The translations under genes and the position numbers were made by a program. From NCBI RefSeq assembly GCF_054482525.1, contig NZ_CM137006.1: a stretch of DNA of 64,000 nucleotides. One strand, given 5' to 3'. The notes below the pieces were generated by a model, which did not search any database, had not been told where the DNA came from, and saw only the letters and a list, made by a program, of their open reading frames with translations. Below are positions 18,233-59,159 of this stretch, one piece after another. Within the stretch, counting starts at the first letter, position 1; the number at the start of each line of letters is the position of its first letter.

Positions 18233-19005
18233 TACTTGGTTGTAAATCCGTAACGTTTAAAGATTTCCGCAGCCTGCGGCCCCTTCAGATAATCATAAAA
18301 TGCTTTCACTGTCGCATTGTTATGCCCTTCCACAACAGCAACCGGATATTCCACTTTTTTATGTGAATCTTCCGGGAAGGTGGCAACCACTTTTACCCCT
18401 TTGCTGGCAACTGCGTCAGAACCGTAAACAATACCCAGCGGCGCTTCATTGCGTTCGACCAACGCCAGCGCGCCACGAACATCTTCCGCCGGAGCCAGTT
18501 TCGGGGAGAGCGTATCCCATGCGCCCAGTTTTTGCAGTGCTTCTTTTGCATAAATGCCAGCGGGAACATGTTCCGGATCGCCAACCGCCAGGCGACCGCC
18601 ATTCAGCAGTGAAGTCCAGTTGGTTTTGCTGTCGATGGTGAAATCTTTCTGCTCGCTGGCTTTCGGTGCTACAACGACCAGGCTATTGCCGAGCAGTGTC
18701 TGACGCGTAGCTGTATCGATCGCTTTTTTATCAACCGCATAATCCATCCATTTCTGATCGGCAGAAATAAACAGATCCGCAGGGGCACCCGCTTCAATCT
18801 GACGGGCGAGAGTAGATGACGAAGCGAAAGAAGAAACCACATCCACGCCTTTCTCTTTTTTATACTGCGTAGCAATGTCCTGCATTGCGTTAGTCAGTGA
18901 TGCGGCGGCGAACACCGTGATTTTCCCTTCATCTGCCACTGCATTGCCAGCAACAGCGAAAGAGAGTGCCGCCCCGGCAAACAAGTTCAACCATTTACGA
19001 GCCAT
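18232..19005 (-). CDS. modA: Molybdate ABC transporter periplasmic binding protein
   Basis: 257 aa with signal peptide MARKWLNLFAGAALSFAVAGNAVA. Confidence 0.94.
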   Translation of the reverse strand: MARKWLNLFAGAALSFAVAGNAVADEGKITVFAAASLTNAMQDIATQYKKEKGVDVVSSFASSSTLARQIEAGAPADLFISADQKWMDYAVDKKAIDTATRQTLLGNSLVVVAPKASEQKDFTIDSKTNWTSLLNGGRLAVGDPEHVPAGIYAKEALQKLGAWDTLSPKLAPAEDVRGALALVERNEAPLGIVYGSDAVASKGVKVVATFPEDSHKKVEYPVAVVEGHNNATVKAFYDYLKGPQAAEIFKRYGFTTK

Positions 19006-19019
19006 TGGTAACCCCTTAA

Positions 19020-19048
19020 TGTAACGTTATGTAGGCGACAATATAACG
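19020..19048. promoter_or_regulatory. ModE operator in modA promoter region
   Basis: Reverse complement reads cgttatattgtcgcctacataacgttaca, the ModE-binding sequence just upstream of modA. Confidence 0.7.
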
Positions 19049-19137
19049 ACTAACTCGGAATTTTCCCAGCAGTTATTGCTAACCTTTGTGAGGTAGTTAA
19101 GAAAAAATATCGGCAGGAAAAGCAGGAAGTTGAGAAA

Positions 19138-19850
19138 AATAAATATCCTCCGGCATAGCCGGAGGTTTTTCAAATGCGCCTATAAGGCTCTCTTACCAGC
19201 CGCGCCCTAACAGGCGCACACGATCTGACATTTGCATCCAACTTCGTTACTTACGGCCCGTAAACGGGCTGCCCGGATAGGGAATCGATAACTGCTCTCC
19301 CATTTTATCCTCTTCAAGCTGGTGCTTTATGTAATCCTGTATCTTCGCCGTGTTCTTACCCACCGTATCGACGTAGTACCCTCTGCACCAGAACTCCCTG
19401 TTCCTGTATTTGAATTTCAAATCACCAAACTGCTCGTAAAGCATCAGACTGCTTTTCCCTTTCAGATATCCCATAAAGCCGGATACGCTCATTTTGGGCG
19501 GGATCTCCACAAGCATATGGATATGATCTGCACAGCATTCAGCTTCCAGAATCCGTACACTTTTCCACTCACACAGCTTTCTCAAAATACTGCCTATTGC
19601 TCTACGCTTCTCTCTGTAGAACACCTGTCTTCGGTATTTTGGCGCAAAAACTATGTGATATTTACAGTTCCATCGGGTGTGCGCTAAGCTCTTTTCGTTC
19701 CCCATTGGGACCCCCTTTTGATTTCTTGTTTGACACTTGCAGTTGCCAGACCGCAAGGTGTTTTAACAAATCAAAAGGGGTTTTAATAACTGGCTTAAAG
19801 CTGAAAGCTTTCCGGAACCCCCAGCCTAGCTGGGGGTTTTCTGTGCACAA
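19138..19850 (-). mobile_element. IS200-family insertion sequence (IS200/IS605 group), copy 1, 713 bp
   Basis: 713 bp repeated identically at 55973..56685 with unrelated flanks on both sides; carries a single Y1/HUH transposase gene; subterminal hairpins cctccggcatagccggagg (19147-19165) and ccccagcctagctgggg (19818-19834). Confidence 0.9.
19247..19705 (-). CDS. tnpA: IS200-type Y1 (HUH) transposase TnpA
   Basis: MGNEKSLAHTRWNCKYHIVFAPKYRRQVFY...ADHIHMLVEIPPKMSVS...; 152 aa from internal Met of supplied ORF 19247..19756; HUH motif HIHML. Confidence 0.9.
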   Translation of the reverse strand: MGNEKSLAHTRWNCKYHIVFAPKYRRQVFYREKRRAIGSILRKLCEWKSVRILEAECCADHIHMLVEIPPKMSVSGFMGYLKGKSSLMLYEQFGDLKFKYRNREFWCRGYYVDTVGKNTAKIQDYIKHQLEEDKMGEQLSIPYPGSPFTGRK

Positions 19851-19856
19851 GAAAAT

Positions 19857-19872
19857 GCCCGACTAAGCGGGC
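19857..19872 (-). terminator. acrZ intrinsic terminator hairpin
   Basis: gcccgactaagcgggc; on the minus strand followed by attttcttg. Confidence 0.45.
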
Positions 19873-19882
19873 ATTCAGGGAA

Positions 19883-20050
<168 letters not shown>

Positions 20051-20160
20051 TCATGAGACTATTCTAACCGCTAAGCACAGAAAAGCACTCCCCTTTTGTG
20101 CGGTCAGCTTTGCGTGGCGTTCGTTTTCCGTCACAATAAGACTTTTGCCAGGACATTGTT

Positions 20161-20949
20161 ATGCAGGCCGAAATCCTTCTCACCCTTAAGCTCCAACAAA
20201 AATTATTCGCCGACCCGCGCCGCATTTCGCTACTAAAACACATTGCGCTTTCCGGTTCCATTAGCCAGGGAGCGAAAGATGCCGGTATCAGCTATAAAAG
20301 CGCCTGGGATGCCATTAACGAGATGAATCAGTTAAGTGAGCATATTCTGGTCGAGCGCGCAACAGGCGGTAAAGGTGGCGGCGGCGCAGTACTGACCCGC
20401 TATGGTCAGCGACTGATTCAGCTCTATGACTTACTGGCGCAAATCCAGCAAAAAGCCTTTGATGTGTTAAGTGACGATGACGCCCTGCCGCTGAACAGCC
20501 TGCTGGCCGCGATCTCACGTTTTTCACTGCAAACCAGCGCCCGTAACCAGTGGTTCGGTACCATCACCGCCCGCGATCATGATGACGTTCAACAGCATGT
20601 TGATGTCTTACTGGCTGATGGAAAAACACGCCTGAAAGTCGCAATTACCGCACAAAGCGGCGCGCGTCTGGGGCTGGATGAAGGCAAAGAAGTGTTGATA
20701 TTGCTAAAAGCGCCGTGGGTAGGCATTACTCAGGACGAAGCTGTCGCACAAAACGCCGACAACCAATTACCGGGTATTATTAGTCATATTGAGCGCGGCG
20801 CAGAGCAGTGCGAAGTATTAATGGCGCTACCCGACGGGCAAACACTGTGCGCCACAGTGCCGGTAAATGAAGCGACTTCTCTTCAGCAAGGACAGAATGT
20901 CACGGCCTACTTTAATGCCGACAGCGTGATTATCGCCACGCTGTGCTAA
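20161..20949 (+). CDS. modE: Molybdate-responsive transcriptional regulator ModE
   Basis: 262 aa MQAEILLTLKLQQKLFADPRRISLLKHIALSGSISQGAKDAGISYKSAW (HTH) plus C-terminal Mop domains. Confidence 0.95.
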   Translation: MQAEILLTLKLQQKLFADPRRISLLKHIALSGSISQGAKDAGISYKSAWDAINEMNQLSEHILVERATGGKGGGGAVLTRYGQRLIQLYDLLAQIQQKAFDVLSDDDALPLNSLLAAISRFSLQTSARNQWFGTITARDHDDVQQHVDVLLADGKTRLKVAITAQSGARLGLDEGKEVLILLKAPWVGITQDEAVAQNADNQLPGIISHIERGAEQCEVLMALPDGQTLCATVPVNEATSLQQGQNVTAYFNADSVIIATLC

Positions 20950-33101: not shown

Positions 33102-33127
33102 AAAAAAGCGCCTTTAGGGCGCTTTTT
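33102..33127 (-). terminator. Intrinsic terminator immediately 3-prime of lysQ
   Basis: Same sequence as 32946-32971, directly following the last tRNA of the operon. Confidence 0.75.
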
Positions 33128-33132
33128 TACAT

Positions 33133-33208
33133 TGGTGGGTCGTGCAGGATTCGAACCTGCGACCAATTGATTAAAAGTCAACTGCTCTACCAACTGAGCT
33201 AACGACCC
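33133..33208 (-). tRNA. lysQ: tRNA-Lys (UUU)
   Basis: 76 nt; reverse complement gggtcgttagctcagttggtagagcagttgacttttaatcaattggtcgcaggttcgaatcctgcacgacccacca with genomic CCA. Confidence 0.95.
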
Positions 33209-33241
33209 CTTGCGGGATTATGCTGCTTTAATCATTCAGGA

Positions 33242-33317
33242 TGGTGGGTCGTGCAGGATTCGAACCTGCGACCAATTGATTAAAAGTCAACTGCTCTACC
33301 AACTGAGCTAACGACCC
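33242..33317 (-). tRNA. lysZ: tRNA-Lys (UUU)
   Basis: Identical 76-nt tRNA-Lys sequence. Confidence 0.95.
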
Positions 33318-33365
33318 ATACGGGTGTTACCTGAAAGATTTCTACTCGGAACCAATCTTTAAAAT

Positions 33366-33463
33366 TGGTGGGTCGTGCAGGATGACTCGCTTCGCTCGCC
33401 CTACGGGCCGTTGCTAGCGCAACGTTATCCTTCACGCTTAACATCTGAGTTTGATGTTAAAAT
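33366..33463 (-). repeat. Truncated tRNA-Lys 3-prime fragment fused to spacer element, copy B
   Basis: tggtgggtcgtgcaggatgactcgcttcgctcgccctacgggccgttgctagcgcaacgttatccttcacg... Confidence 0.7.
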
Positions 33464-33539
33464 TGGTGGGTCGTGCAGGATTCGAACCTGCGACCAATTG
33501 ATTAAAAGTCAACTGCTCTACCAACTGAGCTAACGACCC
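33464..33539 (-). tRNA. lysY: tRNA-Lys (UUU)
   Basis: Identical 76-nt tRNA-Lys sequence. Confidence 0.95.
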
Positions 33540-33542
33540 GAG

Positions 33543-33618
33543 TGGTGGGTGATGACGGGATCGAACCGCCGACCCCCTCCTTGTAAGGGAGGTGCTCTCC
33601 CAGCTGAGCTAATCACCC
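33543..33618 (-). tRNA. valZ: tRNA-Val (UAC)
   Basis: 76 nt; reverse complement gggtgattagctcagctgggagagcacctcccttacaaggagggggtcggcggttcgatcccgtcatcacccacca. Confidence 0.95.
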
Positions 33619-33669
33619 GATACTGCGCTGGATACTACAAACTACTTCCACCGAACCCACCGTAATTAG

Positions 33670-33745
33670 TGGTGGGTCGTGCAGGATTCGAACCTGCGAC
33701 CAATTGATTAAAAGTCAACTGCTCTACCAACTGAGCTAACGACCC
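33670..33745 (-). tRNA. lysW: tRNA-Lys (UUU)
   Basis: Identical 76-nt tRNA-Lys sequence; separated from the next tRNA-Val by 2 nt. Confidence 0.95.
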
Positions 33746-33747
33746 GG

Positions 33748-33823
33748 TGGTGGGTGATGACGGGATCGAACCGCCGACCCCCTCCTTGTAAGGGAGGTGC
33801 TCTCCCAGCTGAGCTAATCACCC
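33748..33823 (-). tRNA. valT: tRNA-Val (UAC)
   Basis: Identical 76-nt tRNA-Val sequence. Confidence 0.95.
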
Positions 33824-33858
33824 GATACTACGCTGGATACTACAACTAACTAGGTTAG

Positions 33859-33957
33859 TGGTGGGTCGTGCAGGATGACTCGACTTCGTCTCGCCCTTCG
33901 GGCCGTTGCTGACGCAACGTTATCCTTCACGTTTTACTACCGCGTCCACCTTAGCGA
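33859..33957 (-). repeat. Truncated tRNA-Lys 3-prime fragment fused to spacer element, copy C
   Basis: tggtgggtcgtgcaggatgactcgacttcgtctcgcccttcgggccgttgctgacgcaacgttatccttcacg... Confidence 0.7.
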
Positions 33958-33958
33958 T

Positions 33959-34034
33959 TGGTGGGTCGTGCAGGATTCGAACCTGCGACCAATTGATTAA
34001 AAGTCAACTGCTCTACCAACTGAGCTAACGACCC
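33959..34034 (-). tRNA. lysT: tRNA-Lys (UUU)
   Basis: Identical 76-nt tRNA-Lys sequence; first gene of the operon. Confidence 0.95.
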
Positions 34035-34077
34035 ACTTTTTCGTTGCTTTCGGTTTGTTTGATATCCCGTGGCAACG

Positions 34078-36980: not shown

Positions 36981-38246
36981 TTACGGTTTGAAGTCCAATG
37001 GCGCGTTTTTGAACACTTCATATACTGCCTGGCTTGGTGGTTTCGGGATCTTCGCAAGTTTAGCTGCTGCCAACGCAGCCTGACAAAGTGCGGGATCGCC
37101 ACCTTCAGGTTTGATATCCAGTAACATACCATCGGGTGCCAGTTTTATGCGCAGCGTACAGGTTTTGCCTGCATAGGACGATGCGTCATAGAACTTACTT
37201 TCGATAGCAGATTTAATCTGCCCGGCATAGTTATTGATATCGGCCCCTGATGCGCCATTGTTTTTAGTATTACCACTCCCGGCTGGCGAAGCATTGTTCC
37301 CTTTCGCCCCTCCCCCCGTTTTCGGTGCATTCTTACCAGAGCTTAGCTCACCGAAAATATCATCTGCCTCTGCGGCAGCTTTTGCTGCAGCGGCTTTTTC
37401 AGCTGCTGCTTTTGCCGCTGCCGCTTTTTTGTCTGCGGCGGCTTTTTCTGCCGCTGCTTTCTTATCAGCTGCTGCCTTTTCAGCAGCCGCTTTTTCTGCT
37501 GCTTTTTTGTCGGCTGCAGCTTTCTCTGCTGCCGCTTTCTTATCAGCTGCAGCCTTTTCAGCAGCCGCTTTCTTCTCAGCTTCTGCTTTGGCTTTTTCAG
37601 CAGCTTCAGTTGCCGCTTTCTTTCTTGCTTCAGCTGCAGCTGCTTCTGCCGCTTCCGCTTTCTTCTTCAGTGCCGCCGCGGCTGCCTCGGCTTTTTTCTG
37701 CGCTTCGGCTGCGGCTTTGGCGGCTTCTGCTTCTGCTTTTTTCTTCGCGTCTGCAGCCGCTTTCTTCGCAGCTTCTTCCGCAGCTTTAGCATCCGCTTCG
37801 GCCTTCGCTTTAGCATCTGCCGCCGCTTTCGCTGCCGCTTCTTCCGCTTGCTTCTGCTTTAACTCGGCCTGTTTTGCGGCTTCTTCAGCCTGCTTTTTCT
37901 GTTCCTGAGCAGCTAACCGCTCTTTCTCAAGTTGCTTCAGGCGTTCCTGTTCAGCCGCTTGTTTCTCACGCAGTTCTTCAGCGGCCTGCTGTTCCTTCAT
38001 CTTGCGCTGCTCATCAGAACGCTTCGCGCTTGATTCCTGGCTTTGCATGCGTTTGTACTGCTCAACTACCGCACCTGAATCAACCATGACAGCGTCGATG
38101 GATGAACCACCGCCGCCTCCGGCTGAAGCTTCTATATTCTCATCGAACGAACTCCAGATCAGCGCCGCAAATAAGATGACATGCAGCACTGCTGAAATAA
38201 TTATCGCCCGCTTGAGCTTGTCGTTTTGTTCGGTTGCCTTTGACAC
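36981..38246 (-). CDS. tolA: Tol-Pal system protein TolA
   Basis: 421 aa MSKATEQNDKLKRAIIISAVLHVILFAALIWS with long Ala/Lys/Glu-rich helical domain II. Confidence 0.95.
   Translation of the reverse strand: MSKATEQNDKLKRAIIISAVLHVILFAALIWSSFDENIEASAGGGGGSSIDAVMVDSGAVVEQYKRMQSQESSAKRSDEQRKMKEQQAAEELREKQAAEQERLKQLEKERLAAQEQKKQAEEAAKQAELKQKQAEEAAAKAAADAKAKAEADAKAAEEAAKKAAADAKKKAEAEAAKAAAEAQKKAEAAAAALKKKAEAAEAAAAEARKKAATEAAEKAKAEAEKKAAAEKAAADKKAAAEKAAADKKAAEKAAAEKAAADKKAAAEKAAADKKAAAAKAAAEKAAAAKAAAEADDIFGELSSGKNAPKTGGGAKGNNASPAGSGNTKNNGASGADINNYAGQIKSAIESKFYDASSYAGKTCTLRIKLAPDGMLLDIKPEGGDPALCQAALAAAKLAKIPKPPSQAVYEVFKNAPLDFKP
37370..37910. repeat. Internal low-complexity tandem repeat DNA inside tolA (domain II)
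   Basis: Repeated gctgc(n)gc(t)tttt... units encoding KKAAAEKAAADKKAAAEKAA; also produces stop-free antisense frames. Confidence 0.85.
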
Positions 38247-43935: not shown

Positions 43936-44880
43936 ATGAGTCCTGATAATATCAGTTCTGCTGTCAATCGCTTCTCAGGTTGGCCATCTAATAATCCTCT
44001 AAAAACAGATAACGAATCAATGACATCACCCATGACTGTGCAGGTAATAAAGATGATTGCCGCCATCCTTGACCCACATCGAATAGTCGTTGGAATCGAT
44101 ACACTTTATACAACGCAGCGCGAAACATTTACCTCAGAGAGTCAACAGCTCATTGAATCAGCATTGCAAACACTTCATGTGATGAATTTAAATAACCTGG
44201 AAACAAATCTCGATGAGGAAGGTCACTATCTGGCTTTTGGATATAACGTTGACACTCCTGACAGAATAACCGTTTCTGCTTATAATGAAAAAAAGCCTGG
44301 CTGCTATGGCCAATGTCTTTTAATACAGGATGACGAAACAGACTTATTTAACCTGATAAAAGTTAAAATTTATGAAGCCAGGCATAATTATGTCGCTCAA
44401 TTGATGAGCGATCCGGAATTTATGTTCAAATTTAGTTATAGCGCTCAACAAAATAGATTAGAACCTCATCTTCTGGTTCCCACTTATTTCCCTCTAAAAA
44501 CAAACGAACCGGTTACGCCAGAGGATGTACTGTTACTTTATCGTTTCTTTAAAATGGATGGTGATTTTAATATATTAACATCAGATGAATACATGAGTAT
44601 CATGACACCTCTGATGAAGTGTGAGCGCAGCATCCACGACCACAACAGGTATGTGACGGGCAAAGATACCCTTCTTCTGGACTATCCTCCTTCTGGTAAC
44701 CAGATATATTTCCATATTTTTCCTGACGAATCAGCAACACTAGTCCTTTATTTTTCAAACAATGACATTGAATGTTTCGTCTTTGAAAGAGATATTCCGA
44801 GCCAGTATCGCTTTTTCAAAATGTTTACCAATCTGGCACTGGTTATTGATCAGTTAACCGATGCCAATCAAATACTTTAA
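43936..44880 (+). CDS. Hypothetical protein, 314 aa, AT-rich gene, no family recognised
   Basis: Intact ORF with SD-like gagg upstream; codon usage and GC clearly lower than flanking genes; Ser/Pro/Asn/Thr-rich N-terminus without hydrophobic signal peptide. Confidence 0.7.
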   Translation: MSPDNISSAVNRFSGWPSNNPLKTDNESMTSPMTVQVIKMIAAILDPHRIVVGIDTLYTTQRETFTSESQQLIESALQTLHVMNLNNLETNLDEEGHYLAFGYNVDTPDRITVSAYNEKKPGCYGQCLLIQDDETDLFNLIKVKIYEARHNYVAQLMSDPEFMFKFSYSAQQNRLEPHLLVPTYFPLKTNEPVTPEDVLLLYRFFKMDGDFNILTSDEYMSIMTPLMKCERSIHDHNRYVTGKDTLLLDYPPSGNQIYFHIFPDESATLVLYFSNNDIECFVFERDIPSQYRFFKMFTNLALVIDQLTDANQIL

Positions 44881-44960: not shown

Positions 44961-45383
44961 ATGATCCCATCTCAAATCTCTTTCAACACCCTTCCTGTCA
45001 ATGCAACATACGCTTCAGAGACAACAGTTGACACACAAAAATTCTCTGACATCCTCTACTCAGCGGGGTGTTCCCTAAAGGATCTGGCTTATCTGAGCAG
45101 ATGTCTGGCATCAATACATCCGACTATCGCCAAAAACATTTATGAAACAGAAAATCTCAGCGATCAAAAATTACTGCATATTGATTTCCGTAGTACAAAT
45201 GAAATCAAGATAAATATCTTTTTTGGTCAACAACGAGAAGGATTAATTGAAATTAATTCTGACACTGTCATTTTTCCGATATTGTCTTCATTAATTGACT
45301 CCGCCATTTCTAAATTTCAACACCAAATCCCCGTTAACGGTTCAGTAAATCCTGACCTATTGTATGAGGATTATACTGATTAA
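44961..45383 (+). CDS. Hypothetical protein, 140 aa, apparently acidic, AT-rich gene
   Basis: ORF 80 bp downstream of the 314-aa gene, same strand, same low-GC composition. Confidence 0.6.
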   Translation: MIPSQISFNTLPVNATYASETTVDTQKFSDILYSAGCSLKDLAYLSRCLASIHPTIAKNIYETENLSDQKLLHIDFRSTNEIKINIFFGQQREGLIEINSDTVIFPILSSLIDSAISKFQHQIPVNGSVNPDLLYEDYTD

Positions 45384-45930
45384 ATCCCTCCTGTCGCGAA
45401 AAATGGCCTGCGTTATTGCCAGACGTAATAAAACTTTTGATTAACGTTACTCGTACTGGTAGCACCTTCATGTACTTTTCTTTTTTACGAAAAATCAAAA
45501 GAGCTAACAAAGGTCATAATTCGCATGAATCATTAATTATTTGTTATTTTCAACATTATTTTTACATTAAGCAGAGATGAATTGCAGTGAAATTCGACTT
45601 AACTTTTATGAAATGCATTTACTCATAGCTAAAGCCACGTCACAAAAATGCAAATTAGAAGTTGATCACAATTATCTCAATACATCAAATCAAGTTAATT
45701 TTAAAAATTTAACATTCATGACATTAGTTGACATAACACACTGAATTAAAATGAGAATTTGAAAACACACTTTAAACAATCATTTCCCGAAAGACATTTT
45801 GAAAATAGATCAATTGCAACATTACGGTCAGATAAAGACACTCCTGTGATATTAAACCTGTGCCGTTATGAGCGGCCATAAATACGACGTGTGTAACTTA
45901 TTTTACTCTCTGTCTTACAAAGGATTACCC

Positions 45931-50476: not shown

Positions 50477-51847
50477 ATGGCTCGTTCTTTTAAAGTCTTA
50501 TCGCCAACGGCAATCCTCGGGTATGGATTCCCGGAGGAGAGCTTCCGCAAAGCGATGGCAGAATCGCCCGATCTGATCGCCGTTGATGCTGGCTCTTCCG
50601 ATCCGGGTCCCCACTACCTCGGGGCGGGCAAACCGTTTACCGATCGCGCAGGGGTCAAGCGCGATCTACGCTATATGATCACCGCAGGCGTGCAAAATAA
50701 TATACCGGTGGTGATCGGAACGGCCGGCGGTTCTGGTGCCGCTCCACACCTGGAGTGGTGCCGAGAAATAATTCATGAGATTGCCCGGGAAGAGCACCTC
50801 TCGTTCTCGATGGCGCTGATCCCGGCAGACGTTGACAAAGCCATCGTCCACCAGGCGCTGGATAACGGCAAAATCACGGCGCTGGATTTTGTCCCGCCGT
50901 TAACCCACGACGCGATTGACGAAAGTACGTATATCGTCGCGCAAATGGGCATCGAACCCTTCCAGCAGGCGCTGAAAGAAGGCGCGCAAGTGGTGCTGGG
51001 CGGGCGCGCTTACGACCCGGCCTGCTTTGCTGCGCTACCGATCATGCAAGGCTTTGATGAAGGTCTGGCGCTGCATTGTGGGAAAATCCTTGAATGCGCG
51101 GCAATCGCCGCAACGCCCGGCTCAGGCTCTGACTGTGCGATGGGCATCATTGATGACAACGGCTTTACGCTGAAGACATTTAATCCGAAGCGTAAATTTA
51201 CCGAAACGTCAGCGGCTGCACACACACTGTATGAGAAATCCGATCCCTACTTCCTGCCAGGACCTGGCGGCGTGTTGAACCTGAAAGGCTGCACATTTAA
51301 AGCGGTCAATGACGGCGAAGTGTACGTCAGCGGTTCTAAGCATGAAGAAACGCCGTATGCCCTGAAACTGGAAGGTGCGCGACGGGTGGGCTTCCGCTGT
51401 CTGACCATCGCAGGAACGCGCGACCCGATCATGATCGCCGGGATCGATAAAATCATCGATGAAGTCAAAACCAGCGTTTCGCGTAACCTGTCGCTCGACG
51501 ATGACAGCATACGCATCAATTTCCACCTGTACGGCAAAAACGGGGTGATGGGCGACCATGAACCGATGCAAACTGCCGGGCATGAGCTGGGGATTGTCCT
51601 TGATGTAGTTGCACCGACCCAGGAAATTGCCAACAGCGTTTGCTCGCTGGTGCGCTCTACTATGCTGCACTACGGCTATGAAAACCGCATCGCTACCGCA
51701 GGCAACCTGGCGTTCCCATTCTCCCCTTCAGATATCCAGGGCGGGCCGGTATACGAATTTTCCATATATCACCTGATTGAAGCCAACGACGCTCTGCGTT
51801 TTGATTTCCATATTGAACAGGTGACGCCAGAAGGAGTTCAGGCATGA
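50477..51847 (+). CDS. Conserved protein of unknown function (possibly DUF1446 / AtuA-like family; assignment from memory, unverified)
   Basis: 456 aa ORF starting 4 nt after MAL stop; no recognisable catalytic motif. Confidence 0.75.
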   Translation: MARSFKVLSPTAILGYGFPEESFRKAMAESPDLIAVDAGSSDPGPHYLGAGKPFTDRAGVKRDLRYMITAGVQNNIPVVIGTAGGSGAAPHLEWCREIIHEIAREEHLSFSMALIPADVDKAIVHQALDNGKITALDFVPPLTHDAIDESTYIVAQMGIEPFQQALKEGAQVVLGGRAYDPACFAALPIMQGFDEGLALHCGKILECAAIAATPGSGSDCAMGIIDDNGFTLKTFNPKRKFTETSAAAHTLYEKSDPYFLPGPGGVLNLKGCTFKAVNDGEVYVSGSKHEETPYALKLEGARRVGFRCLTIAGTRDPIMIAGIDKIIDEVKTSVSRNLSLDDDSIRINFHLYGKNGVMGDHEPMQTAGHELGIVLDVVAPTQEIANSVCSLVRSTMLHYGYENRIATAGNLAFPFSPSDIQGGPVYEFSIYHLIEANDALRFDFHIEQVTPEGVQA

Positions 51848-52161
51848 AACAGTCAATTGTCTCACTGGCGCAAGTCATTCGTTCGAAAAATGCCGGACCT
51901 TACGAACTGGTTTTAGATATTTTATTTAAAACCAAAGAAAACTATGAGCGAGTTAAATCATCAGGGCAATTAACCCCAGAACTGATCGCGCGCTTATATC
52001 ATGTTGAACCTGACTTTATTCATCGTATTGTCTGGTTTGATCCTTCTAACGCAGTAAAAATCGTCATGCCACGAGATATTATCTCCGGGAATGTAGGTGA
52101 CAATGATGTCTATGGTGCACAGCAACATGCACCTTTATTAAATATGAGTTTCGATTTGTAA
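51844..52161 (+). CDS. Small conserved protein of unknown function (possibly DUF4387), partner of preceding gene
   Basis: 105 aa ORF whose ATG overlaps the stop of the preceding gene (ATGA), implying translational coupling. Confidence 0.7.
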   Translation: MKQSIVSLAQVIRSKNAGPYELVLDILFKTKENYERVKSSGQLTPELIARLYHVEPDFIHRIVWFDPSNAVKIVMPRDIISGNVGDNDVYGAQQHAPLLNMSFDL

Positions 52162-53709: not shown

Positions 53710-55362
53710 ATGTCCAAACCATTTATCTGGCAAGAACCGTTTCTACAAAATAAAGACGGTACAGAATATACATTAATTAGCGATCAACATATTACAGTAA
53801 CGGAATTAGACGGCGAAGAAGTGATAAAAATCGCTCCTGAAGCATTAACGCTGCTTGCCCGGCAGGCATTTTATGAAGCCTCTTTTTTCTTACGTTCCGC
53901 TCATTTGCAACAGGTCGCCAGCATTTTTAACGATCCGCAGGCCAGCAGTAATGATAAATACGTTGCGTTGCAGTTATTACGTAATGCTGAAGTCTCAGCA
54001 AAAGGGGTATTACCCAACTGTCAGGATACCGGCACCGCAACTATTGTTGCCAGTAAAGGGCAACAGATATGGACCGGAGGTAACGACGCTGAAGCCTTAA
54101 GCAAAGGCATTTACACCACTTTCCAGGAAAATAATCTGCGCTTTTCACAAAATGCGCCGCTGGATATGTACACCGAAGTCAATACGCAAACCAATCTCCC
54201 GGCGCAGATTGATATCAGCGCTGTCGCTGGTGATGAGTACCATTTTCTCTGTGTTAATAAAGGGGGCGGCTCTGCCAATAAAGCCGCGCTTTATCAGGAA
54301 ACCAAATCCTTATTGCAACCAGAAAAACTGACCGCATTTTTAATCGAAAAAATGAAATCGCTGGGCACCGCTGCCTGCCCGCCTTACCACATCGCCTTTG
54401 TCGTCGGAGGGCTTTCAGCCGATCAAACCTTAAAAGTTGCCAAGCTGGCCTCTACGAAATATTACGACAATTTGCCCACCAGCGGAAACGAGCAGGGACA
54501 AGCATTCCGTGATATTGAGCTGGAAAAAGTGTTGCTCGAGGCCAGTCAGCAATTTGGTATTGGTGCGCAATTTGGGGGTAAATATTTCGCTCATGATATT
54601 CGCGTCATTCGTCTGCCGCGTCACGGTGGCTCTTGCCCGATAGCTATGGCGCTCTCCTGTTCTGCGGATCGCAATATCAAAGCAAAAATTAACAAGCACG
54701 GTATCTGGCTGGAAAAACTCGAACACAATCCTGGGCAATATATTCCAGCCTCACTACGGGAAGAAAATCACGCGCAACATGTACAACTGGATCTAAACCG
54801 TCCGTTGCGTGAAGTGATGCAGGATCTCGCCAGATTACCGGTAGGTACCCGCGTGTCGTTAAGTGGTCCCATCGTAGTGGCGCGCGATATCGCCCACGCC
54901 AAAATAAAAGTGCGGCTGGATAGCGGCGAACCGATGCCGGATTACCTGAAGCATCATATTGTCTATTACGCTGGCCCGGCGAAAACACCGGAGAACATGG
55001 CCTGCGGTTCACTGGGTCCAACCACGGGCGGTCGAATGGACGGTTATGTCGATACCTTCCAGGCTGCTGGCGGCAGTCTGGTAATGTTATCGAAAGGTAA
55101 CCGCAGCCAGCAGGTCACCGATGCCTGTCACAAACATGGCGGCTTCAATCTGGGAAGTATTGGCGGTGCAGCTGCGTTACTGGCGCAAGAATATGTCAAA
55201 AGTCTGCGTTGCCTGGAATACCCGGAGCTGGGTATGGAAGCGGTGTGGATGATGGAAGTGGAAAATTTACCCGCATTCATCCTGGTAGATGATAAAGGCA
55301 ATAATTTCTTTAGTCAGTTTGAGCAGCAACACCGCTGTGCCAGTTGCCCTGCGGGACATTAA
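53710..55362 (+). CDS. fumD: Class I (Fe-S) fumarate hydratase-like enzyme; likely mesaconase/fumarase FumD type
   Basis: 550 aa, collinear similarity to E. coli FumA/FumB ([74 protein letters not shown]); clustered with glutamate mutase and MAL. Confidence 0.85.
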
Positions 55363-55371
55363 GGAAAATGA

Positions 55372-55974
55372 ATGGAAGCGCGAATTTCAACTGAACGGCA
55401 TGTGCAGCACCAGCAAAAATTGAAGGAACAGGTCGATACGCGCGTCGCGGCGGCGATAGAGAAAAAAGGGATCTTGATTGTTTTCACCGGCAACGGCAAA
55501 GGGAAATCCACTGCCGCGTTTGGTACTGTGACGCGCGCGGTGGGTCATGGCAAAACGGTGGGGGTTGCGCAGTACATCAAGGGGCAATGGGACAACGGCG
55601 AATACAACCTTCTCCAGCCGCTGGGGGTTGAGTTTCATATTATGGGAACCGGTTTTACCTGGGAGACACAGAACCGGCAAGCGGATATCGACGCGGCGAA
55701 AGAGGTCTGGTCGGAAAGCAAACGGATGCTGGCTGACAAGCGTTACGACTTAGTGGTGCTTGATGAGCTGACCTATATGCTGGCTTACCATTATCTGGAC
55801 ACCGAAGAAGTGATCGCTTCTCTGCAAAACCGCCCGGCACAACAAAGTGTCATTGTCACCGGACGCGGTTGCCACAGTCAGATATTAAAAATGGCGGATA
55901 CGGTCAGCGAAATCCGCCCCGTCAAACATGCTTTTGATAACGGCATTCAGGCGCAGCCGGGTATCGACTGGTAA
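55372..55974 (+). CDS. Cob(I)alamin adenosyltransferase (CobA/BtuR family), cluster-associated
   Basis: 200 aa; P-loop VFTGNGKGKSTAAFG and ...WETQNRQADIDAA...DLVVLDELTYM...TGRGCH...VSEIRPVKHAF matching remembered E. coli BtuR. Confidence 0.88.
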   Translation: MEARISTERHVQHQQKLKEQVDTRVAAAIEKKGILIVFTGNGKGKSTAAFGTVTRAVGHGKTVGVAQYIKGQWDNGEYNLLQPLGVEFHIMGTGFTWETQNRQADIDAAKEVWSESKRMLADKRYDLVVLDELTYMLAYHYLDTEEVIASLQNRPAQQSVIVTGRGCHSQILKMADTVSEIRPVKHAFDNGIQAQPGIDW

Positions 55975-56685
55975 TAAATATCCTCCGGCATAGCCGGAGG
56001 TTTTTCAAATGCGCCTATAAGGCTCTCTTACCAGCCGCGCCCTAACAGGCGCACACGATCTGACATTTGCATCCAACTTCGTTACTTACGGCCCGTAAAC
56101 GGGCTGCCCGGATAGGGAATCGATAACTGCTCTCCCATTTTATCCTCTTCAAGCTGGTGCTTTATGTAATCCTGTATCTTCGCCGTGTTCTTACCCACCG
56201 TATCGACGTAGTACCCTCTGCACCAGAACTCCCTGTTCCTGTATTTGAATTTCAAATCACCAAACTGCTCGTAAAGCATCAGACTGCTTTTCCCTTTCAG
56301 ATATCCCATAAAGCCGGATACGCTCATTTTGGGCGGGATCTCCACAAGCATATGGATATGATCTGCACAGCATTCAGCTTCCAGAATCCGTACACTTTTC
56401 CACTCACACAGCTTTCTCAAAATACTGCCTATTGCTCTACGCTTCTCTCTGTAGAACACCTGTCTTCGGTATTTTGGCGCAAAAACTATGTGATATTTAC
56501 AGTTCCATCGGGTGTGCGCTAAGCTCTTTTCGTTCCCCATTGGGACCCCCTTTTGATTTCTTGTTTGACACTTGCAGTTGCCAGACCGCAAGGTGTTTTA
56601 ACAAATCAAAAGGGGTTTTAATAACTGGCTTAAAGCTGAAAGCTTTCCGGAACCCCCAGCCTAGCTGGGGGTTTTCTGTGCACAA
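55973..56685 (-). mobile_element. IS200-family insertion sequence, copy 2, 713 bp
   Basis: Identical by eye to 19138..19850 including transposase gene and both subterminal hairpins; begins within/at the TAA stop of the adenosyltransferase gene. Confidence 0.9.
56082..56540 (-). CDS. tnpA: IS200-type Y1 (HUH) transposase TnpA
   Basis: Protein identical to that of copy 1 (supplied ORFs 19247..19756 and 56082..56591 are identical). Confidence 0.9.
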   Translation of the reverse strand: MGNEKSLAHTRWNCKYHIVFAPKYRRQVFYREKRRAIGSILRKLCEWKSVRILEAECCADHIHMLVEIPPKMSVSGFMGYLKGKSSLMLYEQFGDLKFKYRNREFWCRGYYVDTVGKNTAKIQDYIKHQLEEDKMGEQLSIPYPGSPFTGRK

Positions 56686-56718
56686 TAACTGCGCCTGGCA
56701 TCCCGCCAGGCGCAGGTT

Positions 56719-57624
56719 TTACATCTCCTGCGGTACAACCGATTTCGCCAGCAACCATTCACGAAATTGCTGCAAGTGCGGTGAGTCAGACTTCTCTTCC
56801 TGCCACGTCATAATAAAACGATTACCGGTACGAATAGGCACATCACAGGGAATCACCATATCGCCACTATCCAAATCATGTTGAATAGCGAACCGTGGTA
56901 ACAGCGCCACGCCGAGATTAGAGCGCACGGCGGCAATCAGCATTGAAAGCAAATCGAAACGTGGTCCGTTGTTGACCAGCGGACTGCTAACGCCAGATAA
57001 GGCAAACCACTCTTCCCAGCCAGTAATACGGGTACTTTGATGCAGAAGTGGTAACTCTGTAAGCAGTTCTGCCACTGACAGTTTTTGATCGGACATTGCA
57101 AGCAAACTGCCGCTGCATACCGGCAAAATCTCCTCTTCAAAGAGATATTCTACTTCCGCCCAGGGCGCGCAAAAATTTTCGCGCATAATGACAGCATCGT
57201 ACTCCCGATTAAGAAAATCGCCGTTATTAGCTAAAGAGTGAATATTAACAATAATATCGGGATGTAACTTTGTGAATTCATGTAAATTTGGGATTAACCA
57301 GTGGGTACTAAACGTAGGATTCACGGCAAGTTCAATAACCTTAACTGTAGGTTGCCAGGTCATAATGGTATTGGTATCGCGTTCCAGCTTATTTAATGTT
57401 TCTTTTACTATCCCCAGGTAATACTTCCCTGCATCATTAAGAAAAATACGTTTTTTAGAGTGTGAAAATAACGGAGTATGTAAAAATTCCTCCAGCGCAC
57501 TCACTTGTCTGAATACTGCACTTTGGGTTAACGCTAACTCCTCTGCCGCTCTGGTATAACTTTCATGACGTGCGACGACCTCAAAAGTCACCAGCAGTTC
57601 CGTTTTAGGTATTTTTCCTCGCAT
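56719..57624 (-). CDS. LysR-type transcriptional regulator
   Basis: 301 aa; N-terminal HTH ...FEVVARHESYTRAAEELALTQSAVFRQVSALEEFL, C-terminal periplasmic-binding-protein-like effector domain. Confidence 0.85.
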   Translation of the reverse strand: MRGKIPKTELLVTFEVVARHESYTRAAEELALTQSAVFRQVSALEEFLHTPLFSHSKKRIFLNDAGKYYLGIVKETLNKLERDTNTIMTWQPTVKVIELAVNPTFSTHWLIPNLHEFTKLHPDIIVNIHSLANNGDFLNREYDAVIMRENFCAPWAEVEYLFEEEILPVCSGSLLAMSDQKLSVAELLTELPLLHQSTRITGWEEWFALSGVSSPLVNNGPRFDLLSMLIAAVRSNLGVALLPRFAIQHDLDSGDMVIPCDVPIRTGNRFIMTWQEEKSDSPHLQQFREWLLAKSVVPQEM

Positions 57625-58190
57625 AATGCCGTCCCTTAAAAATAGTTTAAACCATCAAAAATACATTACTTATTACGAAGTAATGGTAACCAAAGCAGCA
57701 ATAAATAATTTATAAGAATCATGATTGACATTTATAACCCAGTAAGCCTGGCGTGACAAATATCTTAATCAGATAATAATAATCCGAAAAGCACAGCGCC
57801 TTTCGAATTATCCGGAATCACATTAAGTGAAAATTATTAAATTGATATCATTTATCATATCTGTGGATATTATGATAAACAATCAACAAAGATTTTATTT
57901 TTGATTTATAGCATATCCCTCTAAGAATTTTTGCGATGCTGCAATATCCGGGGTAAAGACCCGATCCTGGCTGACAAATGGCACGACTTGACGATAAGCG
58001 GTGAACATCGCTTTTGTTGATTTACTTAACGCTACGGTCAAACGCTGGGAAGCCAGTGCATCAGGTAACGATTCGAAATTCGCCGTCGTTCTTATTCGTG
58101 GCTTGCGGTCGGTTGCGGCAATCCACAGTGGCTGTGGTCATGCAGTCAAGCCAGCGGTCAGATTTCGACCGTGGTTAACATTTAAGGCAT

Positions 58191-58214
58191 AAAAAAGGCC
58201 ATCATACGATGGCC
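58191..58214 (-). terminator. Rho-independent terminator of sucABCD
   Basis: On minus strand ggccatcgtatgatggcc hairpin followed by tttttt. Confidence 0.8.
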
Positions 58215-58289
58215 AACCATGTCGAAACCGACAGCCCTTCGCCATTCCTGTAGAGGGAAGCGGCGAGGGCTATTTCTTATTACAGATAT
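58191..58289 (-). ncRNA. sdhX: Putative 3-prime-UTR-derived sRNA SdhX (RybD) of the sdh-suc operon
   Basis: ~100 nt between sucD stop and the terminator hairpin; in E. coli this 3-prime UTR gives rise to SdhX; boundaries approximate. Confidence 0.5.
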
Positions 58290-59159
58290 TTATTTCAGAA
58301 CAGTTTTCAGTGCTTCACCGATATCCGCCAGGCTGCGAACGGTTTTCACGCCTGCGGCTTCCAGAGCAGCGAATTTCTCATCCGCAGTCCCTTTCCCACC
58401 GGCAATGATGGCACCCGCGTGGCCCATACGTTTGCCTTTCGGCGCAGTCACACCAGCGATGTAACCCACAACAGGCTTGGTAACGTGCTCTTTGATGTAC
58501 GCAGCCGCTTCTTCTTCAGCGCTACCGCCGATCTCACCGATCATCACGATCGCTTCGGTCTGCGGATCTTTTTCGAACATTTCGAGGATGTCGATAAAGT
58601 TAGAGCCAGGGATCGGGTCGCCGCCGATACCAACACAGGTCGACTGACCGAAACCGTAATCCGTGGTCTGTTTAACCGCTTCATAGGTCAGTGTACCGGA
58701 ACGGGAAACGATACCCACTTTACCCGGTTTGTGAATGTGACCAGGCTGGATACCGATTTTGCATTCACCCGGAGTGATAACGCCTGGGCAGTTCGGGCCG
58801 ATCATGCGAACGCCCGCTTCATCCAGTTTCACCTTCACGGTCAGCATATCCAGCGTCGGGATGCCTTCAGTGATGGTGATAATCAGTTTGATGCCTGCAT
58901 CAATAGCTTCCAGAATGGAGTCTTTGCAGAACGGTGCTGGTACGTAGATAACAGAAGCGGTAGCGCCAGTAGCAGCAACAGCTTCACGCACGGTGTTGAA
59001 CACCGGCAGGCCGAGGTGGGTGGTGCCGCCTTTACCTGGGGTTACGCCGCCAACCATTTTAGTGCCGTATGCAATGGCCTGTTCTGAGTGGAAAGTCCCC
59101 TGGCTACCGGTAAAGCCCTGGCAGATAACCTTGGTGTTTTTATCAATTAAAATGGACAT
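58290..59159 (-). CDS. sucD: Succinyl-CoA synthetase alpha subunit
   Basis: 289 aa [45 protein letters not shown]. Confidence 0.96.

Follow-up and report, generated by a model that had tools for sequence, protein, structure and literature searches.

A clean IS200C insertion beside a terminator-like hairpin, between the glutamate mutase (methylaspartate) cluster and a candidate LysR-type regulator of Escherichia coli

We analysed a 64,000-nucleotide stretch of DNA (contig NZ_CM137006.1 of RefSeq assembly GCF_054482525.1; hereafter the window), focusing on a copy of the insertion sequence (IS) IS200C that lies between the last gene of a glutamate mutase (methylaspartate) cluster and a gene for a LysR-type regulator. 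Across positions 55000-58300 (3.3 kb) the window is 100% identical to the chromosome of Escherichia coli PCN033 (NZ_CP006632.1), for which RefSeq gives the gene order cydA, two hypothetical genes, glmS, glmL, glmE, methylaspartate ammonia-lyase (mal), an AtuA-family gene, DUF4387, a dicarboxylate/amino-acid symporter, class I fumarate hydratase, cobO, IS200C tnpA, LysR, sucD and sucC, with tnpA and the LysR gene on the strand opposite to cobO. The list of open reading frames (ORFs) in the window and our Pfam and NCBIfam family searches concur with this annotation, the Pfam matches in cluster proteins also covering AtuA, DUF4387 and SDF. The operon that ends in cobO reads glmS-glmL-glmE-mal-atuA-DUF4387-gltP-fumD-cobO. 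Its penultimate gene, fumD (53710..55362, + strand; class I fumarate hydratase, mesaconase/fumarase D, matching Pfam Fumerase and Fumerase_C and so named in RefSeq), is followed by cobO (or cobA; 55372..55974, + strand), the last gene of the cluster and an intact 200-aa ATP:corrinoid adenosyltransferase (PF02572, 4.6e-64; NCBIfam cobA, 246.7 bits vs. a cutoff of 167.75). Comparison with the empty site described below shows that cobO carries tandem stops, TAATAA (55972..55977), with TAA at 55972-55974 and a second in-frame TAA at 55975-55977.

Beyond the IS lies an intact 301-aa GcvA-like LysR-type regulator (56719..57624, − strand), with an N-terminal helix-turn-helix domain (Pfam HTH_1, PF00126, 7.3e-18) and a C-terminal substrate-binding domain (LysR_substrate, PF03466, 4.2e-28). 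It faces cobO (+ strand), just as a first-pass annotation made from the sequence alone had described. That annotation also called it the sole regulator in the island, which holds for recognisable regulators: two ORFs near the end of the island adjoining cydA (43936-44880 and 44961-45383) returned no family in Pfam or NCBIfam searches. In the Salmonella locus, the corresponding 1.2-kb gap between cydA and glmS contains no called genes.

The element between cobO and LysR is the second of two in the window, copy 2 (55973..56685, − strand, with its left end at the high coordinate) forming an exact 713-bp repeat, with 0 mismatches, of copy 1 (19138..19850, − strand). The repeat begins at the second base of the cobO TAA (55972-55974), so that its earlier placement right at the stop codon was accurate. 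RefSeq names the copy-2 gene IS200C and annotates a single coding sequence, tnpA, without tnpB. The tnpA gene (56082..56540, − strand) encodes a 152-aa Y1 HUH transposase matching PF01797 at 3.8e-38 over positions 2-121 of the 121 in the profile and NCBIfam transpos_IS200 (NF033573) at 147.7 bits (cutoff 55). Its translation contains an HIH motif at residues 61-63 (H61-I-H63) and a tyrosine at 125, and by likeness to IS608 TnpA we take H61, H63 and Y125 as the putative catalytic residues. The left-end region (56550..56673, − strand), which comprises a left-end hairpin (56651-56673) and the stem-loop of the 5' untranslated region (5'UTR; art200/STnc490), is a full-length match to Rfam RF01405 (STnc490) at 146.1 bits (gathering score 56). 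Given the Y1_Tnp/transpos_IS200, Rfam STnc490 and RefSeq matches, copy 2 is a genuine IS200C rather than a chance resemblance. A further Rfam hit, to the Yersinia small RNA Ysr202 at 55842-56005, was set aside as chance, as it scored 26 bits vs. a gathering score of 315 and aligned the terminator hairpin alone.

The two ends of the IS, TTGTGCACAG... and ...GGATATTTATT, do not form inverted repeats; each carries a subterminal hairpin. The left-end hairpin has a predicted free energy of -22.1 kcal/mol on the + strand and -19.0 kcal/mol on the − strand. At the right end, a terminator scan of both strands found the hairpin CCTCCGGC-ATA-GCCGGAGG (55982..56000; predicted -15.5 kcal/mol, z = -2.9), whose tail is TTTTTC on the + strand and ATATTTATT on the − strand. 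This structure is predicted to act as a new terminator for cobO (+ strand) and as the terminator of tnpA (− strand).

To define what the insertion changed, we compared the window with IS-free alleles. In three such alleles (L002, L003 and L004) the region reads GGTAATAACTGCG(C/T)CTGGCATCCCGCCAGGCGCAGGTTTTACAT, with the junction itself being ...GACTGG TAA TAA CTGCG(C/T)CTGGCATCCCGCCAGGCGCAG GTTTTACAT.... Set against the empty sites of copy 2 (GGTAATAA|CTGCG) and copy 1 (GAGAAAAA|GAAAATG), the inserted DNA amounts to 711 bp with no sequence lost, and occupied alleles differ from IS-free alleles by 710-711 extra bp only. The exact register is uncertain because AATAA occurs at both copy-2 junctions and AA at both copy-1 junctions; combining the two empty sites leaves copy 2 three possible registers (55973-56683 to 55975-56685), all of which regenerate TAATAA and leave the CobO protein unaltered, at 200 aa in IS-bearing and IS-free alleles alike. 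Since the junction overlap varies in length between the copies (5 nt, AATAA, at copy 2 vs. 2 nt, AA, at copy 1), it is not a fixed-length target duplication but an overlap between the IS end and the target.

The stop-to-stop distance between cobO and LysR is 33 bp in IS-free alleles vs. 744 bp with the IS. The 33-bp spacer is essentially one hairpin, a bidirectional terminator-like structure (56689..56715, both strands; predicted -25.4 and -25.5 kcal/mol) that is common to cobO and LysR in L002, L003 and L004, and that in the window still immediately follows the LysR stop codon, with 3 nt separating it from the IS left end. Its tails are weak (GUUUUACA and UUAUUA), the T-tract in the LysR direction, TTATTA, being the reverse complement of the cobO TAATAA. 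The native, right-end and left-end hairpins all have the shape of intrinsic terminators, and termination at each of them is predicted from folding.

In the IS200/IS605 family, the top strand of the element lies on the G-rich strand, i.e., the lagging-strand template, a bias coupled to replication. The + strand of the window has a GC skew of -0.036 and tnpA lies on the − strand, an orientation which by analogy fits this family bias (with n = 2 copies only) and would be consistent with a single-stranded circular intermediate (peel and paste).

Next, we surveyed how common the insertion is, using a 641-bp probe spanning the IS-free junction against 5,426 complete E. coli genomes. The cobO/LysR junction region was found in 1,121 of them, placing the cluster in ~21% of these genomes, and the IS-specific junction in 5; as the search bridged the 711-bp gap, the 1,121 include those 5 IS-bearing genomes, leaving ~1,116 that are IS-free. 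All 29 of 29 sampled rows covering the whole probe, O157:H7, O55:H7 and O145 genomes among them, were single uninterrupted matches. Salmonella enterica likewise has sucD, LysR and then cobO and fumD on the opposite strand, without an IS. The convergent cobO/LysR layout is thus older than the IS. The first-pass annotation had proposed that the IS may have disrupted the original 3' region or a regulatory linkage, and had named IS-free alleles with the same gene order and spacing as the observation that would count against this. We ran that comparison and found such alleles: that order, convergent and IS-free, occurs in ~1,116 E. coli genomes and in Salmonella, 33 bp separate the genes in IS-free alleles, and the insertion deletes nothing and leaves both ORFs and the LysR hairpin intact. 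On this evidence the idea of a disruption is not supported.

The 5 IS-bearing genomes fall into 3 haplotypes that share one insertion nucleotide and one orientation of the IS, and that span 2 island architectures. The first comprises PCN033, SCU-102 and 19KM1776, which have an identical junction and all of which also carry copy 1. The second is elppa5, with a 710-bp IS, in which LysR is divergent from RtcB and mngBAR is kept; its flanks show 0 differences in 3,268 nt from those of the IS-free strain WP7-S18-ESBL-09, vs. 44 positions that differ from PCN033. The third is Ch1, with a different TnpA allele in an IS that departs from the PCN033 copy at 23 of 711 positions, and with flanks that differ from those of PCN033 at 41 of 3,268 positions. 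Independent insertion is the simplest reading of these three haplotypes, with recombinational spread as the alternative. A single ancestral insertion, inherited by or recombined into all five genomes so that the site is no hotspot, would account for junctions that are identical to the nucleotide in all five, and PCN033, SCU-102 and 19KM1776, with copy 1 also in common, clearly derive from one event. As an explanation of all five genomes we nevertheless judge it improbable, considering the match of elppa5 to an IS-free strain rather than to PCN033, the divergence of the Ch1 element and its transposase, the differing architectures (RtcB and mngBAR in one, LysR beside sucD in the others) and the precise terminator targeting seen at 29 of 31 other sites, described below.

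We then asked what precedes IS200 left ends elsewhere. One genome per species was scanned for the exact left-end 20-mer and the 60 nt upstream were inspected, yielding 31 distinct left-end flanks, with about 15 species and metagenome-assembled genomes (MAGs) of enterobacteria, one soil proteobacterial MAG and E. coli loci as their sources (among them Citrobacter, Brenneria, Mangrovibacter, Kluyvera, Pluralibacter, Entomohabitans, Kosakonia, Yersinia and several MAGs). A GC-rich hairpin followed by a T-tract running into TT|GTGCAC was present in 29 of the 31 flanks, vs. 0.4% of 126,534 control positions in the same loci. Positions -7 to -4 were T in 25-30 of the 31 flanks, and positions -2/-1 were TT in 31/31. 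Among TTTTNTT sites in the same loci only 16.8% had such a hairpin, indicating that T-tracts alone do not explain the hairpin excess. Six of the left-end loci (L011, L012, L013, L014, L015 and L038) carry the exact left-end 20-mer, yet ~700 nt farther on the sequence is unrelated and lacks a right-end motif. They may represent truncated elements, solo left ends or another element that has this left end in common.

Both window copies have their left end behind a hairpin and a T-rich tract: copy 2 behind the cobO/LysR hairpin (...GGCGCAG TTATT|GTGCACAG...) and copy 1 behind the acrZ terminator (GCCCGCTTAGTCGGGC ATTTTCTT|GTGCACAG). Copy 1, whose left end abuts that terminator, lies between it and modA, 133 bp 5' of the modA start; the surrounding window segment (18700-20300) scores 2952 bits vs. 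SCU-102 and 2946 bits vs. the PCN033 RefSeq record, so that the window may represent a sister strain of PCN033 or a different version of its assembly. The copy-1 site is also occupied in strain GmM077, by an IS with 6 differences, and may be a second recurrent target.

From these patterns, copy 2 probably sits at the cobO stop because of the way IS200 selects its target, here the LysR-side T-tract, the complement of TAATAA. Going further, we propose, tentatively and as somewhat short of an even chance, that IS200 recognises a whole intrinsic terminator (hairpin plus T-tract, as single-stranded DNA), inserting precisely, to the nucleotide, where the T-tract ends and co-oriented with the terminated gene. 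IS200 right ends always finish ...GGAGGATATTTATT, i.e., a hairpin and a T-rich tail, and we hypothesise that a terminator may mimic the right end of the IS (a hairpin followed by ATATTTATT). If true, targeting of whole terminators would explain the recurrent hits at one nucleotide in three island haplotypes, as well as the harmless intergenic seating of the element and its insulation from incoming transcription.

Two points weigh against terminator targeting. The T-tract at the copy-2 site itself is weak (TTATT), and this flank is among the 2 that fail the terminator criterion; and terminator adjacency could partly reflect the survival of harmless insertions. In its full form the latter becomes a rival explanation, with IS200 inserting broadly and the copies behind terminators persisting, intergenic sites 3' of convergent genes being the least harmful landing places. 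It agrees with a 2025-26 preprint that found terminator-like sequences enriched upstream of ISs, most strongly for IS200/IS605, and that reads upstream terminators as favouring IS persistence. We consider selection of this kind an improbable explanation of the whole pattern, as it has to contend with a nucleotide-precise register (TT at the end of 31/31 flanks and T at -7 to -4 in 25-30 of 31), a fixed orientation relative to the hairpin, repeated hits at one nucleotide, and hairpins that are enriched even when compared with other T-tracts (94% vs. 17%). Given the enrichment reported in the preprint, a general tendency of IS200 toward terminators is not new; register-precise, structure-specific targeting, recurrent hits and right-end mimicry we did not find in the literature examined. 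That literature is thin on IS200/IS1541 target choice: upstream terminators were named only in the 2025-26 preprint, PMC6006769 has nothing on the subject, and an older description is possible.

How would such an insertion act on its neighbours? A 711-bp IS200C of the IS200/IS605 family (IS200 group), with tnpA alone, has entered the 33-bp spacer between intact, convergent cobO and LysR genes, its left end being joined to the 3' end of the T-tract after their shared terminator-like hairpin, with tnpA co-directional with LysR. The LysR transcript would keep its own hairpin and the first five bases of its tail unaltered (UUAUU). The cobO transcript would meet the right-end hairpin CCUCCGGC-AUA-GCCGGAGG followed by UUUUUC, seven bases past the second stop, while the opposite strand of that hairpin would face tnpA transcripts running toward cobO. 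Left-end transcripts heading for LysR would encounter the left-end hairpin and UUUUCUGUG, and then the native hairpin, such that IS-borne transcripts would be contained by the hairpins at the IS ends. In Salmonella, the left-end hairpin and 5'UTR stem-loop of IS200 and their roles have been described, the former acting as a bidirectional terminator and the tnpA promoter being weak (PMC4513863). From the predicted folds we infer that the insertion is close to neutral, with little effect on either gene.

This assessment is tempered by the predicted strength of the new structure: with -15.5 kcal/mol, the hairpin at the right end is less stable than the native hairpin (-25.4 kcal/mol), and operon termination could differ. 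The exchange of hairpins is also the first argument for a functionally significant insertion that alters expression of the glutamate mutase operon or of LysR, for which possible routes are an altered operon 3' end, lost coupling of convergent transcription (the two genes now being 744 bp apart instead of 33 bp) and the RNAs of the IS (art200 and the 5' tnpA small RNA). In Salmonella, RNAs that originate from the IS200 5'UTR are active in trans (PMC5435999; bioRxiv 10.1101/2024.06.26.600842). We nonetheless think a functional effect unlikely: the two ORFs, both stop codons and the hairpin of LysR stay unaltered, the right-end hairpin with its TTTTT has the canonical shape of an intrinsic terminator, IS200 brings its own bidirectional terminator and weak promoter, and the insertion, rare at 5 of ~1,121 island carriers, gives no sign of spread.

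We turn now to the regulator, which the first-pass annotation had put forward as a candidate controller of the glutamate mutase operon while objecting that LysR regulators are usually divergent from their targets. The best NCBIfam matches of the protein are GcvA (221.6 bits vs. a cutoff of 288) and DsdC (145.7 bits), and as it falls below the cutoff of every named family, it belongs to an unnamed clade; a search of the literature returned no paper characterising it. Its orthologues were compared across lineages. Salmonella enterica (85% identity) has the E. coli layout, with LysR converging on cobO. A metagenomic enterobacterium (72%) lacks cobO, and there LysR converges on fumD, the ends of the two genes overlapping. 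In Yersinia enterocolitica (63%) it is divergent from an operon with glmS, glmL, glmE, mal, AtuA, DUF4387 and the symporter, followed by fumD-cobA, and in Yokenella (57%) from an operon of B12-uptake-like genes together with glmS, glmL, glmE and mal. The objection accordingly falls away, orthologues in two genera being divergent from the glm operon; the divergent layout is absent in E. coli, Salmonella and the 72% metagenome lineage, all of which are convergent, and this convergent form would be a rearrangement of the Yersinia/Yokenella layout. The persistence of LysR beside the cluster through three arrangements, two of them divergent, is circumstantial evidence that it regulates the cluster.

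A k-mer and alignment footprint across the five lineages also revealed a 21-bp conserved box, TTTTGAAAATAGATCAATTGC (45797..45817, + strand), about 115-135 bp 5' of the glmS ATG (45931), which is a candidate operator for a LysR-type transcriptional regulator (LTTR). E. coli, Salmonella and the 72% metagenome lineage share the box letter for letter, and Yersinia and Yokenella keep its core, ATCAATTG, so that the core does not vary across the five lineages; outside this block the regions upstream of glmS show ~50% mean identity. Inside the box, TTGA-N7-TCAA, a candidate for the T-N11-A type of dyad operator, spans 45799-45813. A related sequence, TTTGAAAA, lies 39 bp upstream, at 45759-45766. 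Perfect 5-nt dyads common to the promoter regions of different genera were limited to one uninformative AT-rich pair. We suggest that the LysR protein may act at this conserved box, ~120 bp 5' of glmS. The first-pass proposal therefore stands in part: LysR is a credible candidate controller by virtue of its kept synteny and of the box, and regulation itself we infer from good circumstantial evidence of comparative sequence.

Several observations count against LysR as regulator of the cluster. Kronen and Berg (2015; PMC4682846), who included a putative LTTR in their drawing of the enterobacterial cluster and showed FumD to be a mesaconase/fumarase, were unable to identify conditions that induce the cluster. 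A scan for sigma-70 consensus on the + strand 5' of glmS found none, and the same scan gave nothing convincing for LysR. Two homologues of the protein, at 68% identity in Citrobacter portucalensis and 45% in Pseudogulbenkiania, are not beside a glm cluster; with no such cluster adjacent, both were treated as paralogues. In strain 20 of E. coli, LysR lies 270 bp downstream of a six-gene hut-type operon, on the same strand and with no HutC.

These points lend themselves to a different assignment, in which LysR is not the glm controller and serves either the hut-type module (HAL-hutG-hutI-hutD-permease-hutU) or a fumarase/dicarboxylate function. PCN033 keeps remnants of the hut-type operon, and because that module makes glutamate, the substrate of the adjacent pathway, we retain the hut assignment as a rival. 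As for fumarase, the Yersinia LysR is directly upstream of fumD-cobA, and the 45% homologue in Pseudogulbenkiania (L045 10001-14367) lies beside class II and class I fumarase genes, a context that may hint at an LTTR clade tied to C4/C5-dicarboxylate or fumarase function and not to glutamate mutase as such. Such alternatives are doubtful. Against the hut assignment, hut genes are not a fixed part of the three E. coli architectures, all of which keep the cobO-LysR junction; the 10-kb flanks hold no hut genes in Salmonella, Yersinia, Yokenella or the 72% lineage, where LysR adjoins the glm cluster; and the operator-like box is conserved 5' of glmS.

The architecture of the island edge sheds light on how the PCN033 arrangement arose. 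We distinguish at least three architectures in E. coli. Strain 20 (L003 14185-21926) has hutU, a cytosine-permease-like gene, hutD, hutI, hutG and HAL (a HAL/PAL-type ammonia-lyase), as well as RtcB, between LysR and sucD; WP7 and elppa5 have RtcB and mngBAR at the island edge; and PCN033, 23CRST032 and Ch1 have LysR beside sucD. In the window, the DNA 5' of LysR (57625..58192) starts with an AT-rich stretch (57625-57894), after which blastn and tblastn against strain 20 identified remnants of HAL residues 511-557 (58035-57895, − strand) and 378-397 (58086-58027, − strand), together with RtcB C-terminal fragments (~58090-58192, + strand). This patchwork of remnants at 57895-58192 indicates that the PCN033 type arose by deletions from a larger island like that of strain 20.

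Within the cluster, the AtuA (DUF1446) and DUF4387 pair (50477-52161) follows methylaspartate ammonia-lyase in E. coli and Salmonella as well as in Yersinia and the metagenome lineage; the Yokenella locus breaks off with AtuA the only member seen. According to PMC4682846, what becomes of (S)-citramalate in these bacteria is unknown, and this conserved pair is an obvious candidate for the missing step. That study also placed the cluster in 26.5% of E. coli strains.

Elsewhere in the window, a cluster of repeated tRNA genes occupies 33113-34056, and degenerate 15-18-nt periodic repeats rich in GCTGC/GCAGC lie at 37352-37835, inside a long − strand ORF (36981-38246). We take these repeats to be, probably, the Ala/Lys-rich repeat region of TolA; neither feature bears on the insertion.

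Collectively, we find it probable that the locus represents a strain-specific, clean and near-neutral IS200C insertion placed by terminator choice, next to a LysR that would regulate the cluster at the conserved box. Element, island and putative regulator each belong to known kinds, and RefSeq already annotates the insertion. Copy 2 is an ordinary strain difference that is probably harmless, and the IS polymorphism should not be read as breaking or rewiring the glutamate mutase cluster. Worth keeping are the positional explanation (terminator targeting and recurrent hits) and the hypothesis of a regulator and its operator. A rule that IS200 left ends abut terminator T-tracts helps in annotating element boundaries and predicts the landing sites of new copies, and the comparative data nominate a regulator and a 21-bp box (45797-45817) for a pathway found in about one-fifth of E. 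coli genomes, whose carriers include the O157:H7 genomes sampled.

Finally, we compared the element and the cluster with known systems. The IS has the same parts as the IS200 of Salmonella and E. coli, i.e., a single 152-aa Y1 HUH tnpA, subterminal hairpins, a left-end terminator hairpin and the STnc490 5'UTR; relative to the Salmonella IS200 reference (707 bp), the window copy (711 bp) and the elppa5 copy (710 bp) differ in nothing essential. IS608 and ISDra2 insert in a fixed orientation, with the left end placed just 3' of a short specific target, and make no fixed target duplication; their targets are a plain tetra- or pentanucleotide (TTAC and TTGAT). IS200C here resembles them in its oriented insertion 3' of the target at the left end and in the lack of a fixed duplication, whereas its target looks like a hairpin plus T-tract, a whole intrinsic terminator, and not a plain tetra- or pentanucleotide. 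ISs that target repetitive extragenic palindromic (REP) sequences, such as ISPpu9 (PMC8450116), also insert at or into an extragenic palindrome, but they belong to other IS families with other chemistry, and the hairpin here is terminator-like rather than a REP. That the cobO/LysR hairpin might itself be a REP element was set aside on the E. coli REP consensus. Turning to the regulator, LTTRs of amino-acid catabolism such as GcvA and DsdC share its HTH_1 plus LysR_substrate architecture, while the window LysR and its Salmonella orthologue converge on the presumed target operon instead of diverging from it. The cluster itself has the same glmS, glmL, glmE, mal, DUF1446/AtuA, gltP, fumD, cobA and LTTR as that described for E. 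coli O157:H7 in PMC4682846, a paper that contains no analysis of the regulator, and it differs in that PCN033 and four further genomes have an IS200 between cobA and the LTTR.

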